Shown here piece after piece: positions 31,182 through 38,356 of a DNA stretch of 64,000 bases. The DNA lies in assembly GCA_963726255.1 (NCBI GenBank), contig CAVSBL010000002.1:1-64000 (forward strand). The letters run 5' to 3'. The position numbers were made by a program, and so were the translations under genes. This DNA is from Candidatus Bathyarchaeota archaeon. GTDB lineage: Archaea; Thermoproteota; Bathyarchaeia; 40CM-2-53-6. The notes under the pieces are model-generated. The model saw nothing but the letters and a program-made list of their open reading frames with translations. It had not been told where the DNA came from and made no database searches. Each line of letters starts with the position of its first letter. The stretch's first letter is position 1.

Positions 31182-31649
31182 TCAAAATTGCGCTAGAACA
31201 TCTTCCCGCTCCATCACATGCCCACAGAAGTAGCAGCGGAGGCGAATTGGTTCCCGACGGTCAACGCCGAACCGAGGCTCCACAGGTTCCCTAGAATTAG
31301 ATATGCAGGACGGGTTGTCGCATTTTATGATTCCTCGAATAGTGGGTGGGAGTTCCACGACTTTTTTCGACGCAACATCGTAATTTCGTATTATGTTGAT
31401 GGTCGCGTTGGGGGCAATCAGCGCGATCTTATCGACCTCGCCGGGCCTAAGCTCCCTGTTCTGTATTTTCACAATATCCTTATCGTGTAACTGCTTACTC
31501 TCGACGTTCAGGGCGACGCTCACCATCTCACCATCCTTTCCATTGATTCCGAGAATTTTGAGTACGTCGAGGGCGAAACCAGGTGTAATGTGGTCAATGA
31601 CCGTTCCGTCTTTGATCTTCCTAACGTAGAGTTCTTGACGCGCTTGCAA
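31182..31649 (-). CDS. pyrI: aspartate carbamoyltransferase regulatory chain
   Basis: GTVIDHI, KDIVKI, CDNPSCIS, CYFC. Confidence 0.96.
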   Translation of the reverse strand: MQARQELYVRKIKDGTVIDHITPGFALDVLKILGINGKDGEMVSVALNVESKQLHDKDIVKIQNRELRPGEVDKIALIAPNATINIIRNYDVASKKVVELPPTIRGIIKCDNPSCISNSREPVEPRFGVDRREPIRLRCYFCGHVMEREDVLAQF

Positions 31650-31757: not shown

Positions 31758-32228
31758 TCATTTTCGTTTTATTGGGACTTGCACTTCACAGTTGGCCCAC
31801 GCGCGGGCACTGGTCCACGGGCTTCCAGTGTAAACTTCCCTCGATGGCCCTAATTGCTTGAAGGGCCTGTATTGCAGCCAGCCTTCAATCCCATGGTAGA
31901 CCACCTGCTCTGCTACCTTATCAGGGTTGAATGTCACGCTTACCACTCTTCGTTTCGGTAATTTCATTATGCCTATCTTGCCCTCAGGCTTCGCCTTACT
32001 CTTGAGCTCCAGGCATGCTGCGGAACGGCGTTTACTGTCAGGTTTCTTTCCCCATTCGTCGATGAAGAACACTATCCACTTTCCCGTTCTGATTCGCCGT
32101 TTCTTAGCCCATCTCGTGAGTTGGTTGAATTCCCTGCGCCACATGTTCGGGCCGGTATATCCACCAATACGGATTATGTAAGCGACTTTGTAGCTCGGCG
32201 CAACTTTGATGCTGAAATCAACCGCCAT
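31758..32228 (-). CDS. GyrI-like small-molecule-binding protein
   Basis: VAYI...G.Y, Y..I..W, GPSREVY...EVQVP. Confidence 0.75.
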   Translation of the reverse strand: MAVDFSIKVAPSYKVAYIIRIGGYTGPNMWRREFNQLTRWAKKRRIRTGKWIVFFIDEWGKKPDSKRRSAACLELKSKAKPEGKIGIMKLPKRRVVSVTFNPDKVAEQVVYHGIEGWLQYRPFKQLGPSREVYTGSPWTSARAWANCEVQVPIKRK

Positions 32229-32623: not shown

Positions 32624-32956
32624 TTAATCTAAGAAGTCCATCGGTGTACTGGGCCGTCGAGGTTCTGTGTCTAGGTATGTGATTAGATCCTGTATCTTCT
32701 TGTAGGCCTCGAGGTATTCCATCCCCTTTCTCGTAATGCCATAGTACTGGCGCTGGTTAAGGTTCCCTTGCAAGGGTAATCCCAGGACGTGGATCCTGAT
32801 CAATTCATATCGACTCAGAGTTTCAAGCATTGGCTTCATTCTATCGATGGGTAGTCCAGCGCCGTAGGAGAGCCTTGTAACTTGACAACCGTCTGGGTGG
32901 CGTTTCAGGTACTCGAGAATATCGGCGTAGATATCTAGCCGAGAACGCTTCTTCAA
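32624..32956 (-). CDS. winged-helix transcriptional regulator
   Basis: RSRLDIYADIL...TRL.Y...YGITRKG.EYL. Confidence 0.8.
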   Translation of the reverse strand: MKKRSRLDIYADILEYLKRHPDGCQVTRLSYGAGLPIDRMKPMLETLSRYELIRIHVLGLPLQGNLNQRQYYGITRKGMEYLEAYKKIQDLITYLDTEPRRPSTPMDFLD

Positions 32957-33120: not shown

Positions 33121-34074
<954 letters not shown>

Positions 34075-34137: not shown

Positions 34138-34890
34138 ATGCGTCTAGAATTACTCCCATCATCCCGAAAACGCCGAGTCCTACCTAGGCACGTAGTGAAC
34201 TACACGGCGTTTCGTGAAGACTTTCGCATGCAAGAGGACGAGAGCGAACTTCACCTCCTAGAGAAATTCCACGCCGCGAGGGTTCTTTCCAAGAACGGAG
34301 ATGTTGATACCTTTGTCGAACCAGTTCTTTACGACTCCGAGAAACATTCGCACAGGTTCACCTCAGACCTGGTCGGAATTGAAGGCGCTATCTTAACGGC
34401 GGTTTTCTGTGAAACAAAGCAACCGAGCGAATCGCTGCTGAAGGATCTGGGGGTAGTAGATGAGGCGGAGAACTCAAAAGCCGTTGTCGTTTACCCGTCG
34501 AAAGTGAACTCTAACCAAATAAGTTCCTACTTCCCCGAGGCCGTTGACTCAGGCAAATTCGTAATCGAGCATCTCAATTGGCGGGACCGAGGGCTGGAGC
34601 GGGCTTTTCGAGAAGCACTGGAACTCATGGACTTGCTCTGCAACGAAACACGTGTGAAAATGCTTCTACCGCTGTTGGAGCATCCGCAGGGGAAGAAGAA
34701 TTTCAGGGAAGGAATAAACCCTAAGCTCATCTATGAAAATGTCCCCTTGCTTAGAGCACATAAACTCATAGACGAGCTATCGGATGACCTGTACGACCTT
34801 ACTCCGATTGGCAAAACGATCCTCGGCGAGTACCTGGCATTCGTCGAGAAGGTCAGGGATCTGCTCGAAAGAGCGGACAAAGAAGAATAG
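34138..34890 (+). CDS. hypothetical protein with C-terminal wHTH
   Basis: NETRVKML...YDLTPIGK. Confidence 0.6.
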   Translation: MRLELLPSSRKRRVLPRHVVNYTAFREDFRMQEDESELHLLEKFHAARVLSKNGDVDTFVEPVLYDSEKHSHRFTSDLVGIEGAILTAVFCETKQPSESLLKDLGVVDEAENSKAVVVYPSKVNSNQISSYFPEAVDSGKFVIEHLNWRDRGLERAFREALELMDLLCNETRVKMLLPLLEHPQGKKNFREGINPKLIYENVPLLRAHKLIDELSDDLYDLTPIGKTILGEYLAFVEKVRDLLERADKEE

Positions 34891-34916: not shown

Positions 34917-35396
34917 ATGGTTGAACGCCTAGACGCTTCCCGTGACTTTGGCGACGTTTTCGAGGTTGTCAAGAAATCTGCGGAGCATTCCCTGGGGCGT
35001 CGTAGAGCAGGCCTAATGCTGTATCTGGCTAAGCTGCCCAGGCACATTGGTGCGTTTCACACCATGGGGACAAACGGCATCGTCATGAATAGAACTATCC
35101 TCGACATGGTGACGCATGGCGCACGGTCACTTCGCGAAATCAATTCCTACGTGTATTCAATCCTGCTACACGAGTATTTGCATGCGCTCGGCTACGTGGA
35201 AGAACAGGACGTGCGAAAGCTGGTGTACGATGTCTCATTGCAAACATTCGGCCCAGAACACCCCGCCACCCAAATAGCCTCAAGAGGTCCAGGCGCCATG
35301 TTCCCCGAAATCTCACTTCATGATGCGCCAACAGAGACGCCTGACATTGAAGTAATTCCAGACCTCGAGAGAAGCAGCCAGCGGTACATCAGCTAG
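34917..35396 (+). CDS. small zincin-like metalloprotein
   Basis: LHEYLHALG (HExxH). Confidence 0.7.
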   Translation: MVERLDASRDFGDVFEVVKKSAEHSLGRRRAGLMLYLAKLPRHIGAFHTMGTNGIVMNRTILDMVTHGARSLREINSYVYSILLHEYLHALGYVEEQDVRKLVYDVSLQTFGPEHPATQIASRGPGAMFPEISLHDAPTETPDIEVIPDLERSSQRYIS

Positions 35397-37704
35397 CTAC
35401 CGTGTAAGATATTCGTCTATCCACAATTCTCTTCTTTGCTTCAGGCCAAAGCGTGAACGGCAGCAGACCGTACGATGAACGACCTAGGTGCGTGGTCCTG
35501 TCTGAGCCGCAATTGCTGCATTTCGGTGTGATTCCAAGGTCGGTGTGGTTGCAGACGCTGCAGGCTGAATAGTTCGCTGTATACGTCAAGAACTTGCAAC
35601 CATATTCAAACGCTCTCTCGGTGAGCTTCAAAAGAGCGGGCGCCGTGGAATCAGGGGAGATACAGACCACGCTGAGATGTCCGCCAGGCGTCGCTGATTG
35701 AAACCCCGATTCCATATCCAACCTGCTGTCGATAGTCATTTTCGTTGTCAAAGGAATGGTCGGCAAGTCGGTGTAGTACAAGAGGCCCCTAGATCCGTCT
35801 GCTACAATAACCGCCCTCCCATATTGCTCCATGTCCAATTCCGCGAGCCTACCCGCGGCTTCGTCCCCGGGCCGTTGTGAAACCAGAATGCGCAGCTCCG
35901 ATTCATCTGAGGCGGACTTTAGCAGGTTCGAAGCCTCTTGCAGGATTCTTAGGCCGAAATCAGCTGCCGCTTTGTCCCGTTCCATCCTGAGTCCGGTATG
36001 GGCGTCGACGGCTTCGTTCAGGCCAATAAATGAGAGATTGTAGGAAGAGTTCTTTTCGTAAAAGTAGGGTGAGGCGCCACCCTCCCCAGCCAAGAGAGGG
36101 AGCAGCGGTTGTTTCAGACGTTCGCTGACGAACTTTTTCTTGACTTTGAAACCTTCCACAGTTAACGCGACAGCCTCGCTAAGTAATGCTAGGAATTTTT
36201 CGTCGTTCTTCTTGGCCTCGTACGCTATTCGAGGAAGATTTATGAAAATAGTGTCCATGCTACCTGTTCTGATACAGTCCGCGTCCCAATGATTCGTCCA
36301 CTCATCGCCTAACCTAAGCCCCGTAGCCGAGTAACTGCTCTTTTCTTCGTCGCCAATTAGTTCGAAGAAGGGGATGCTGCGTTCTGCGGCCAGTTGGTGG
36401 GCTTTCTCAAGAATCAGTCTACCCTGCGCGTCACTCAGAGCCTTGCGCCTAACTTTTACTACAAGATGGGGCAAAACCGGCGGGCGTGACTGTGACATTT
36501 TCTGAAAAGCTTCGATTGTCGCACCGGCCAGCCGACTGCTTTCATCCGAGAAATCTGAATATTTGCCGGCGCTTTTGCCACCTGGACCGATCGCATTCTC
36601 CTGCGAAAGGAACGCTGGCATCGCCAAGTCAACTGAGACTGATATCCCTGCTAGAGGAGTGCTTGAGGGGATATCTTTCCGCAATGAAGTGAGGAAGTAG
36701 TAGATGCCGTTAGAAATGTCCTCCGCCGATCTTCCTTGGATGTATGGGGAGAGGAAAATGTTGAAGAATTCAAGCGTCTGCTCTCCTGAGACCTCGCCGG
36801 CCCCGAGTTCCAATACTTGGCGGACCAGTGCAAGCGCCGCTTCGAAAGTGTCGGGTGGTGATATTCCCGGGAGACTGTTCTTTAGGAAGTAACGGATGTC
36901 GTGAACAACTTCGTTTGGGGAAAGAATCCAGTTTTCCAAGTTAGCTATGTGAATCTCGCCCGAAAGGTGCGCATCCGCGAGTTTGTGAGGTAGGCAGTTG
37001 AGCAGAACATATTCCGAGAGAACCGACCTCGCCGACGAACGTTGAACGTAACCAGCGCTAAGCTGCTTCTCGCCCGCAGTTTTGATGAGTTGGGCCACAT
37101 CGTAAACTGGCATTCCAAGCCTTGTGAGCTTGTGGCGGTACTCCTCCAGTTTCTTCTCAATCAAAATCGCATTGACGAATTCGCGAATTAGCGGCGCAGT
37201 AAGGTAAGTCGTCTTTAATCTGACGAGCCTATCCTCAGCCTCGGCTGCTATCTCGTCTGCGATTTCTTGTGGGACGCCCGCTTCAACTACGAGTGACCTC
37301 GCGATCTTGTTCCTGTGGAATTCCTCTATTGCAAGCCTTGAAGATCTCACGTAGAGTTTGCCGCGCTTGACATTAACGTACTCGTCCAAGTCTCGAGCGA
37401 AGGATACGATCATTCGGCCGAGTTCAGTGACCTCGTACCGCTTTGTCTTCTTTTCAAGGGTCACTAGGCCTATGTCGGTTAGGCTTCGGAGATGATAGAC
37501 AAATTTGCCAGCGTCCCGCACAGGGTCAAGTTTGAGCTGGAACATTATTTCCGTATACTGGAGGGGGCCTTTGGTTGATAGAAGTCGTAAAATTTGTAGC
37601 CTTACGGGGGCAGACGCGGCGTCGAAAATGCCGGCGCCGACTCTCTCCGATGAACGAAGCAAGTGATTACCGCCTAGAAGATGGCTCGCAACCACCATAA
37701 GCAT
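35389..37704 (-). CDS. ArsR-type HTH + ATP-cone-like + class III ribonucleotide reductase-like (NrdD) protein, probably non-catalytic
   Basis: YHLRSL HTH; TAPLIREFVN; DAHLSGEIHI, INLPRIAY, FIGLNEAV, PGGH, CSVC/CSNC; catalytic motifs are altered. Confidence 0.85.
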   Translation of the reverse strand: MLMVVASHLLGGNHLLRSSERVGAGIFDAASAPVRLQILRLLSTKGPLQYTEIMFQLKLDPVRDAGKFVYHLRSLTDIGLVTLEKKTKRYEVTELGRMIVSFARDLDEYVNVKRGKLYVRSSRLAIEEFHRNKIARSLVVEAGVPQEIADEIAAEAEDRLVRLKTTYLTAPLIREFVNAILIEKKLEEYRHKLTRLGMPVYDVAQLIKTAGEKQLSAGYVQRSSARSVLSEYVLLNCLPHKLADAHLSGEIHIANLENWILSPNEVVHDIRYFLKNSLPGISPPDTFEAALALVRQVLELGAGEVSGEQTLEFFNIFLSPYIQGRSAEDISNGIYYFLTSLRKDIPSSTPLAGISVSVDLAMPAFLSQENAIGPGGKSAGKYSDFSDESSRLAGATIEAFQKMSQSRPPVLPHLVVKVRRKALSDAQGRLILEKAHQLAAERSIPFFELIGDEEKSSYSATGLRLGDEWTNHWDADCIRTGSMDTIFINLPRIAYEAKKNDEKFLALLSEAVALTVEGFKVKKKFVSERLKQPLLPLLAGEGGASPYFYEKNSSYNLSFIGLNEAVDAHTGLRMERDKAAADFGLRILQEASNLLKSASDESELRILVSQRPGDEAAGRLAELDMEQYGRAVIVADGSRGLLYYTDLPTIPLTTKMTIDSRLDMESGFQSATPGGHLSVVCISPDSTAPALLKLTERAFEYGCKFLTYTANYSACSVCNHTDLGITPKCSNCGSDRTTHLGRSSYGLLPFTLWPEAKKRIVDRRISYTVAS

Positions 37705-37855
37705 GCGCTGACGTTTAAAAAATTGTAGTTACCGCTATACCCCCATTATGGGGTTCAGAAATTCCCCATTCACAGCAATTGAGAATCTTTATTTTGGTTC
37801 GGCATGCGAGGAAGCGCCTCACAATGTAGGTGTTACGCGAGTGGATGAAGTGCGA

Positions 37856-38356
37856 ATGCGGGGAGCGGATTACAGTACCCTGGCGAAACTTGAAGAGGCC
37901 TTCGAACGAAAGGACCTTTCATTCTTCAAAACGTTCCTGCAAAACTCAAAGGGGCTCCCCCTCCTACTCCGAGTTCACGCAGTTTGCATGCTCGAGCACA
38001 TTGGAAACGAGGAAATGGTAGAGCCATTGTGCAAGGTCCTTGCGGAAGACCCTAGTCCCCTCACACGGCACGAAGCTGCGTTCACCCTTGGCCAGTTGGG
38101 TCACAGCTCAGCCGTGCCGGCATTGGTAGAGGCGATGCAACATGACGAGAGCCCAATCGTTCGACATGAGTCGGCCGTAGCACTGAGCTCCATAGGCGAC
38201 GATCGTGCAGTTCCTGATCTGAAGAAAGCAATCGAGGATAGCGATGAGGACGTCAGCAATTCAGCACTGATTGCTTTCGAGTATCTAGACTACTTACACC
38301 GAAGAAGAGAAAATGCTTCCGATAGGTTCGCGGTGAAACCGAAGATTAGGCTGTGA
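37856..38356 (+). CDS. HEAT-repeat protein resembling one half of deoxyhypusine hydroxylase
   Basis: RHEAAFTLGQL and VRHESAVAL His-Glu motifs; start approximate (ORF track gives 37748). Confidence 0.75.
   Translation: MRGADYSTLAKLEEAFERKDLSFFKTFLQNSKGLPLLLRVHAVCMLEHIGNEEMVEPLCKVLAEDPSPLTRHEAAFTLGQLGHSSAVPALVEAMQHDESPIVRHESAVALSSIGDDRAVPDLKKAIEDSDEDVSNSALIAFEYLDYLHRRRENASDRFAVKPKIRL

Follow-up and report, generated by a model that had tools for sequence, protein, structure and literature searches.

A catalytically dead relative of class III ribonucleotide reductase as a probable regulator of ribonucleotide reductase genes in archaea

Two described systems stand closest to the gene considered here, which lies on contig CAVSBL010000002.1 of Candidatus Bathyarchaeota archaeon, within an analysed stretch of 64,000 nt (the window; its genome is denoted G000), and which encodes a winged helix-turn-helix (wHTH), an ATP-cone and a body resembling the class III ribonucleotide reductase (RNR) NrdD. 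The first of these systems is NrdR, a bacterial repressor specific to RNR genes, of about 150 residues and made of a Zn ribbon and an ATP-cone; ATP or dATP bound by this cone alters the oligomeric state and the binding to DNA. NrdR (PMC9110341 and PMC12176259) joins a DNA-binding module to an ATP-cone, is often encoded with RNR genes and has boxes on RNR promoters and on its own promoter, and in these respects the protein of the window would be similar. On the other hand, the latter has about 757 residues and combines the wHTH with a divergent cone lacking the Lys-Arg pair and with a dead NrdD body; its architecture (wHTH, cone and barrel) and the absence of a match to TIGR00244 set it apart from NrdR, and the two proteins are not homologous as wholes, although the proposed job and logic are alike. 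The second system is class III NrdD itself (1h78/1hk8, 4coi/4u3e, 8p23 and 9d3x), a homologue with which the protein has in common the barrel, the NLPR motif, the Cys4 zinc site and the N-terminal ATP-cone. Unlike NrdD, it has neither of the two active-site Cys residues, nor the aligned Asn, the HxHD motif, the glycyl motif or an NrdG partner; it carries an additional wHTH, and it falls on a separate branch of the tree.

Likeness to regulators of the ArsR/SmtB type is confined to the N-terminal domain, which is without the metal-site Cys residues and is fused to a presumed sensor of 650 residues instead of standing alone. This domain matches, above the cut-off, DUF7347, an archaeal wHTH to which Pfam assigns no function. 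The reuse of metabolic-enzyme folds to sense the metabolites of a pathway and to control its genes is familiar from PyrR and BirA, both of which keep their catalytic activity; the protein analysed here differs from them in that it appears to have lost catalysis entirely, and in its origin from a radical enzyme. Based on the results presented below, it is likely, with a probability of roughly 0.6, that this protein, a catalytically dead descendant of NrdD, is a DNA-binding transcription regulator of RNR genes and of itself.

The fold can be described with some confidence. The region of residues 26-101 matches PF24038 (DUF7347) in Pfam at 35.7 bits against a cut-off of 27.6, and the ArsR-type model HTH_5 falls just short (21.9 against 22 bits), as do HTH_20 and HTH_45; NF033788 (ArsR) reaches 25.3 bits against a cut-off of 55. 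No Cys is found in these residues, and in the AlphaFold model they form three helices and a two-strand wing; the presumed recognition helix carries GKFxYHLR. The ATP-cone (PF03477, residues 118-189) scores 21.9 bits on the protein and 26.7 bits in a six-frame search, with a cut-off of 25.8, and PF13597 (NRDD) gives a near full-length match over residues 221-766 with an E value of 3.8e-65. An earlier note on this DNA had described an ArsR-like wHTH, an ATP-cone-like region and a full NrdD body with its Zn site, and each of these was recovered, including the four Zn Cys residues. The NrdD equivalog model TIGR02487 of NCBIfam, however, is matched at only 240.9 bits, under its cut-off of 326.35. 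The AlphaFold2 model, for which 61 family members served as the input alignment, has a mean predicted local distance difference test score (pLDDT) of 89.5 and a predicted template modelling score (pTM) of 0.80, and most of the barrel exceeds a pLDDT of 90. When this model was compared with solved structures in Foldseek, every one of the top matches was a class III RNR, from P. copri, S. thermophilus, T. maritima or phage T4; the E values range from 8e-28 to 4e-19, and the target-normalised TM scores against the NrdD structures are 0.61-0.76.

The catalytic positions were assigned by HMMER alignments to solved NrdDs (T4, 9d3x and 8p23), and we take the catalytic set of NrdD to be Cys79, Cys290, Asn311 and Gly580 of the T4 enzyme, with Cys290 as the thiyl radical residue. 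Gly580 is named in the accessible part of PMC2795772. In the protein of the window, the thiyl-Cys position is occupied by Leu463, the glycyl-radical Gly position by Tyr, and T4 position 311 aligns with Ser482. The HxHD motif, which holds the substrate triphosphate according to the part of PMC11226230 that was available, is likewise replaced. The motifs quoted in the earlier note, GRSSYGL, SATGLRL and PNEVVHD, were found where it had placed them, opposite the catalytic elements of the solved enzymes, and the alignment brings neither the Gly nor the Cys into its catalytic column. The same replacements recur in 120 listed relatives of 54-94% identity. When 150 cluster representatives were aligned, RP.C.QHDL, MGCR, TGN and SRITGY stood at these places in the canonical NrdDs and were not found in the HTH-bearing proteins. 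Because the replacements are conserved both in the 120 relatives and in the HTH-bearing representatives, they are more than chance.

Among 61 diverse members of the family, the thiyl column never holds a Cys, and the glycyl columns 745 and 746 are variable, as are the HxHD columns 254 and 255. Asn489 of the NLPR motif, like the four Zn Cys residues, is invariant in the same set. An exception outside the 61 is representative P0135, which retains a GCR loop and has no glycyl motif. Altogether, two of seven NrdD features are present (the barrel fold and the Cys4 zinc site), and five are absent, namely the thiyl Cys, RxxG[YF], HxHD, NrdG and a TIGR02487 score above the cut-off. As well as a sequence can show it, the protein is thus a catalytically dead descendant of NrdD; the earlier proposal of a pseudoenzyme is borne out by the family-wide loss of the radical and substrate motifs, by the lack of NrdG and by the low equivalog score.

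The family to which the protein belongs is extensive. An exhaustive search of representatives returned 1884 clusters at E ≤1e-3 and 379 at E ≤1e-30, and relatives are encoded in at least 589 species genomes; the best 80 of these are nearly all labelled Bathyarchaeia or Bathyarchaeota, seven carrying other or unspecific labels. DUF7347 is present in 99 of the 120 listed relatives. In the class, TIGR02487 matches 144 of 151 sampled genomes, and only 99 reach the canonical cut-off; in the window's own family, all 11 genomes have a sub-cut-off copy only. Of 201 genomes sampled across the phylum, 149 contain the N-terminal module (residues 15-215), which is absent from some families (0/15, 0/7 and 0/6). 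In the maximum-likelihood tree, which is unrooted and whose groups were defined by motifs, one branch parts 58 HTH-bearing proteins from 20 canonical NrdDs with a Shimodaira-Hasegawa-like approximate likelihood ratio (SH-aLRT) support of 100, and this split persists with the barrel (core) columns alone. By these comparisons, the family is a large archaeal one that forms a branch apart from canonical NrdD.

Conservation along the protein is uneven. The cone and linker have a median identity to the query of 66%, the wHTH of 46%, the body of 31% and the Zn/C-terminal part of 25%, and across the phylum the NRDD score drops from 229 bits to 18.8 bits and then to no match, with DUF7347 and the ATP-cone kept. 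Such uneven conservation, together with the erosion of the body, is what one would expect of a protein whose function resides in its DNA-binding head and its cone. Database sources name the members of the family 'anaerobic ribonucleoside-triphosphate reductase'. A literature search, with subscription journals not covered, brought up no report of an NrdD that is inactive or fused to an HTH, and the accessible portions of PMC13450708 and PMC4390871 mention none.

It is worth noting which RNR genes accompany the putative regulator in its own genome (an assembly of 2.42 Mb, 98.5% complete with 9.3% contamination). The regulator gene is the sole NRDD match genome-wide, which means that no canonical NrdD is present. 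One RNR of the class I/II type was found; it is class II-type, has a strong ATP-cone of its own and is encoded 1.66 Mb from the regulator gene. No NrdG exceeds its cut-off anywhere in the genome, the best scores being 41.4 against 131 bits (TIGR02495) and 27.5 against 126 bits (TIGR02491), and NrdR is equally lacking, as no TIGR00244 match was obtained genome-wide at E ≤0.01. The remark in the earlier note that no activase gene lies beside the regulator gene is correct and can be widened to NrdG in the whole assembly, and the search for nrdG and another RNR, which it had put forward as a check, led to the single class II-type gene.

In other lineages, the regulator gene is found beside RNR genes. 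In one family of the same phylum (f34), it adjoins a class II RNR gene (PF02867 with an ATP-cone) in 15 of the 16 genomes common to both samples; the regulator gene lies upstream on the same strand in 14, one arrangement is divergent, and one genome has the two genes on separate contigs. The spacers between the regulator and RNR genes measure 235-474 nt in the 13 loci with both genes located, and the f34 intergenic listings cover loci other than L154, L165 and L173. In Bathyarchaeia, 12 of 12 loci that were picked for adjacency to a canonical nrdD, an arrangement seen in many genomes, show the order regulator, in some a small CxxC redoxin, nrdD with RIxGY, in L096 nrdG, and then convergent pyrB and pyrI. 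Loci L095-L102 show a working nrdD between the regulator gene and pyrB, and in L095 and L097 near-identical regulator genes are followed by different nrdD types. Two archaeal lineages thus show linkage of the regulator gene to RNR genes, and the RNRs concerned belong to two classes. It is also retained both in nrdJ-only lineages (11 of 11 genomes of the window's own family) and in nrdD-only lineages (f3 and f8). Within the order to which the window belongs, the families without a class I/II RNR (0/4 and 0/6) have a canonical NrdD, the window's family shows the reverse, and both keep the regulator.

A sequence element shared by the promoters concerned points in the same direction. The spacers between the regulator gene and nrdD in other genomes carry GTACAAAATTTTATAC, or near variants of it, 10-15 nt ahead of the TATA box. 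When this 16-mer was searched on both strands of the 2.42-Mb genome with up to 2 mismatches, exactly one match was obtained, GTACAATTTTTTATAC at C2:1695827, which is located about 20 nt ahead of the TATA-like CTATTAAAG and about 90 nt ahead of the TTG at which the class II RNR gene probably starts. The regulator gene's own promoter reads AACTACAATTTTTTAAAC, and the 12-mer TACAATTTTTTA occurs twice genome-wide, once in the class II RNR promoter and once in the regulator's own promoter. The 12-mers of the 128-nt own-promoter region match 47 other positions in the genome, from which the chance that any shared 12-mer lands in a given 150-nt target is estimated empirically at about 0.003. Two other box-like sites, C2:605102 and C2:624917, were considered as targets and rejected; the former falls in a region of small ORFs and the latter within a gene.

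Close relatives (L015-L020) conserve AACTACA[AG]TTTTTTAAAC, and of four further genomes, three have a TACAA word close to the TATA box of the regulator's own promoter. More widely, TACAA-N4-TTGTA with at most 1 mismatch was found in 5 of 24 nrdJ and 4 of 12 nrdD upstream regions, where shuffled sequences gave about 0.5 and 0.4, and 13 RNR promoters (9 nrdJ and 4 nrdD) align without gaps to the consensus TACAAAATTTTATACAAAnnTGTCTAAAAnnTTAAA. The candidate box presumably differs in sequence from the NrdR box. The candidate operator appears to be new.

Taken together, the linkage to RNR genes in two lineages, the shared cis-element and the lack of NrdR in the genome support the earlier suggestion of a transcription factor analogous to NrdR, and a mechanism may be outlined as follows. 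The N-terminal winged helix would bind a box of TACAA-like hexamers spaced by about one helical turn, with the consensus TACAAAATTTTATACAA. This box would abut the TFB-recognition element (BRE) and TATA box of RNR promoters and would overlap the TATA box of the regulator's own promoter; a protein bound there would therefore hinder or assist the loading of the TATA-binding protein (TBP) and transcription factor B (TFB). The ATP-cone and linker, perhaps with a contribution from the fossil NrdD body, would sense nucleotides and thereby set the DNA affinity or the oligomeric state. In the genome of the window, the presumed target is the single class II-type RNR gene, and repression is assumed by analogy with NrdR. 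The loss of the catalytic motifs, the fold, the family-wide conservation, the RNR linkage and the shared box were observed; that the protein binds DNA, which ligand it senses and in which direction it regulates are inferred.

Several features of the cone bear on this proposal. The relatives score 25.6-36.5 bits with the ATP-cone model, and an alignment with canonical cones shows us that the last helix retains Y-R-x-K-x-x-R and that the Arg ahead of the hairpin is also retained. The linker YRHKLTRLG is nearly invariant in the family. When the cone region by itself was compared with the sequences of the PDB, the matches did not rise above chance level (E ≥0.05). The conserved cone suggests that the protein may sense nucleoside triphosphates or deoxyribonucleoside triphosphates (dNTPs), ligand binding being presumed. 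A bolder and quite tentative extension is that the fossil body keeps the old allosteric specificity site, so that one factor would gauge all four dNTPs, reading more than ATP and dATP, and would set RNR transcription whatever the RNR class, which would make the family a general archaeal master regulator of the dNTP supply. If this were so, the whole allosteric apparatus of an enzyme would have been reused as a gene switch.

Because NrdR is rare in archaea, as stated in the accessible part of PMC9110341, the control of archaeal RNR genes is largely unknown, and a regulator of the type proposed here is most likely previously undescribed for archaea. If the proposal holds, a widespread regulator derived from a dead RNR would fill this gap and would offer a clear case of a radical enzyme that has become a sensor. 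It would also correct a systematic annotation error, the current label wrongly implying anaerobic dNTP synthesis in genomes such as that of the window. The candidate box and the two defined promoter fragments make the idea of a regulator directly testable.

A number of observations weigh against this regulatory role. On the side of the sensor, the ATP-cone is borderline for Pfam by the protein score given above, and Ser-Ser or Thr-Ser stands at the site of the canonical Lys-Arg pair, where the accessible portion of PMC11226230 names Lys7 and Arg8 among the phosphate ligands. On the side of the box, the strict pattern is missing from 19 of 24 nrdJ and 8 of 12 nrdD upstream regions, the shuffle control keeps the mononucleotide composition only, and the 13 aligned promoters were selected for carrying the box. 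The loose pattern TACAANNNNTTRTAYA with 1 mismatch is not enriched against the reversed control in five other genomes (e.g., 45+37 versus 69+75); consequently, genome-wide specificity of the box is shown only for the genome of the window. Furthermore, the match in the regulator's own promoter is in part just a TATA box, farther relatives carry other sequences ahead of TTTAAAC, the f34 loci are without the TACAA box, and the box could be bound by another factor. On the side of the linkage, the regulator gene of the window adjoins no RNR gene, and nrdD lies directly downstream in only 9 of 53 unselected loci with at least 3 kb of downstream sequence, pyrB being the commoner neighbour.

The f34 regions have a sequence character of their own. 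In L145, L146, L153 and L155-L164, they are rich in GATC, with 16.1 per kb upstream of the regulator gene and 12.4 per kb between it and the class II RNR gene, compared with 5.9 per kb over the whole loci, and the recurring words include CGATCA...TGATC and ACGATCATCGT. These spacers may hold a lineage-specific operator.

The frequency of pyrB leads to the best surviving alternative, in which the protein would be a DNA-binding regulator of pyrimidine or general nucleotide metabolism (e.g., of pyrBI) and the RNR box would be bound by another factor. The pairing is indeed common: pyrB is downstream in 45 of the 80 best loci, and where the flank extends to at least 3.5 kb the count is 34 of 50. 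The distance is often no more than 5-40 nt, pyrI follows in 28 loci, and the pairing exceeds that with nrdD counted above. However, it is convergent, and therefore no promoter is shared; inspection by eye of the sequence ahead of pyrB in the window revealed nothing resembling the box, whose unique matches in the genome fall at the RNR promoter and at the regulator's own promoter. In f34, moreover, 15 of 16 genomes have the class II RNR gene as the partner, and no N-terminus resembling aspartate carbamoyltransferase was seen by eye among the neighbours in L145 and L146. This alternative is accordingly judged unlikely, and control of RNR genes remains the preferred reading.

It is less probable still that the protein has no role in transcription and instead binds RNR subunits or nucleotides as a partner or decoy without catalysis, for instance in a heterodimer with NrdD or as a dNTP buffer, with the HTH serving protein contacts. 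Its NrdD fold, complete with the Zn ribbon and the core that forms the dimer, and the frequent encoding beside nrdD would fit such a role. Nevertheless, the protein is kept in G000 and in all 11 genomes of its own family, which have no canonical NrdD, and in f34 it is kept beside class II RNRs. The body erodes where the wHTH and the cone persist, and a shared promoter box fits DNA binding.

Retention of some enzyme activity, in the form of a non-radical chemistry for which the old barrel would serve and which the HTH would tether to DNA, is very improbable. The barrel is predicted confidently, and the invariance of Asn489 and of the Zn site could be taken to reflect such an activity; on the other hand, the catalytic columns hold many different residues with no conserved polar constellation, HxHD has decayed, and in some lineages the NRDD match amounts to 18.8 bits or is below detection. 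A working class III reductase that would use Gly746 of the 'YG' pair and another Cys, and would be activated by an enzyme encoded elsewhere in the genome, is hardly credible at all, since, although this Gly stands one residue past the canonical position and the genome does contain one glycyl-radical activase, of the pyruvate formate-lyase (PFL) type (TIGR02494, 359.7 bits), residue 746 is Gly in only 7 of 61 members, with YE or SS in some close relatives, the finger loop is Cys-free in 61 of 61, HxHD is gone, the activase gene lies 1.47 Mb away directly upstream of a PFL-like enzyme of its own, and a class II RNR is already present in the genome.

The coordinates of the features discussed here and of the pyr genes in the window are collected in Table 1. 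The ORF is given there as listed; however, its true start is probably the TTG at 37662, which would yield a protein of 757 residues, because a gap of only about 10 nt separates the TATA-like TTTTTTAAA (37714-37722) from the ATG at 37704 and because many relatives have 757 residues. These relatives are numerous and span 98% of the query. Contigs from RNA libraries (X19 and X20) match parts of the gene at 95-99% identity, and one X19 contig extends to 37757, past the predicted TATA box; such contigs cannot prove transcription, strand or start.

Table 1. Positions in the window of the putative regulator gene, its domains, its altered motifs and the pyr genes
Feature	Position	Strand	Basis or remark
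ORF of the protein with wHTH, ATP-cone and dead NrdD body	35389..37704	(-)	uninterrupted, 771 codons/771 aa as listed
TACAATTTTTTAAAC, the regulator's own promoter (TATA) overlapping one candidate RNR box copy	37713..37727	(-)	sequence
Winged helix-turn-helix	37402..37629	(-)	residues 26-101, PF24038 over cut-off
Divergent ATP-cone and linker YRHKLTRLG	37099..37359	(-)	residues 116-202; PF03477; presumed sensor
NrdD-like ten-stranded barrel body, non-catalytic	35407..37044	(-)	residues 221-766; PF13597
HIAN replacing the HxHD substrate-triphosphate motif	36940..36951	(-)	residues 252-255, alignment
PNEVVHD at the first active-site Cys region of NrdD	36898..36918	(-)	residues 263-269, opposite T4 '..NCCLVD'
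SATGLRL finger loop, Leu replacing the thiyl-radical Cys	36310..36330	(-)	residues 459-465, opposite 'MGCRSF' of 9d3x
Cys4 zinc ribbon C715, C718, C729, C732, retained	35509..35562	(-)	invariant in 61/61 members
GRSSYGL, degenerate glycyl-radical loop	35464..35484	(-)	residues 741-747, opposite 'RITGYL' of 8p23
pyrB (aspartate carbamoyltransferase), convergent neighbour	33148..34074	(+)	Pfam
pyrI (aspartate carbamoyltransferase regulatory chain)	31182..31649	(-)	named by likeness to neighbour cluster (28 loci) and Cys motifs

The gene order in the window, from the regulator gene, is two unnamed small ORFs, pyrB and, farther off, pyrI, with no nrdD among them. The two ORFs, at 34138-34890 (+) with 250 residues and at 34917-35396 (+) with 159 residues, have no Pfam or NCBIfam match, and each recurs in 7 related loci; they occupy the place between the regulator gene and pyrB at which relatives carry nrdD. 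Two further small ORFs, 32624-32956 (-) and 31758-32228 (-), split pyrB from pyrI, which are direct divergent neighbours in relatives, and the one of 110 residues is winged-helix-like by eye. On the other side of the regulator gene, a HEAT/PBS-lyase-repeat gene (37748-38356, +) begins only about 20 nt from the promoter box on the opposite strand, so that it may be controlled jointly with the regulator gene, unless its start has been annotated too far upstream. In loci L097, L100, L103 and L104, nrdD is preceded by a small ORF that contains CP[RK]C and looks by eye like a glutaredoxin or NrdH, which suggests a thiol-dependent subtype of class III RNR.

Two observations concern G000 outside the window. 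The PFL activase and the PFL-like enzyme are encoded at G000:C2:1511556-1514819 (loci L008 and L166-L168), and the Gly_radical domain of the enzyme is divided between a 701-residue frame and the next frame of 124 residues, which is due to a frameshift or to an error of assembly close to the C-terminus. In addition, a stand-alone ATP-cone match of 27.8 bits was found in an ORF of 104 residues at G000:C2:1191966-1192160 (+), in locus L137, and its product could be a second, small nucleotide sensor.

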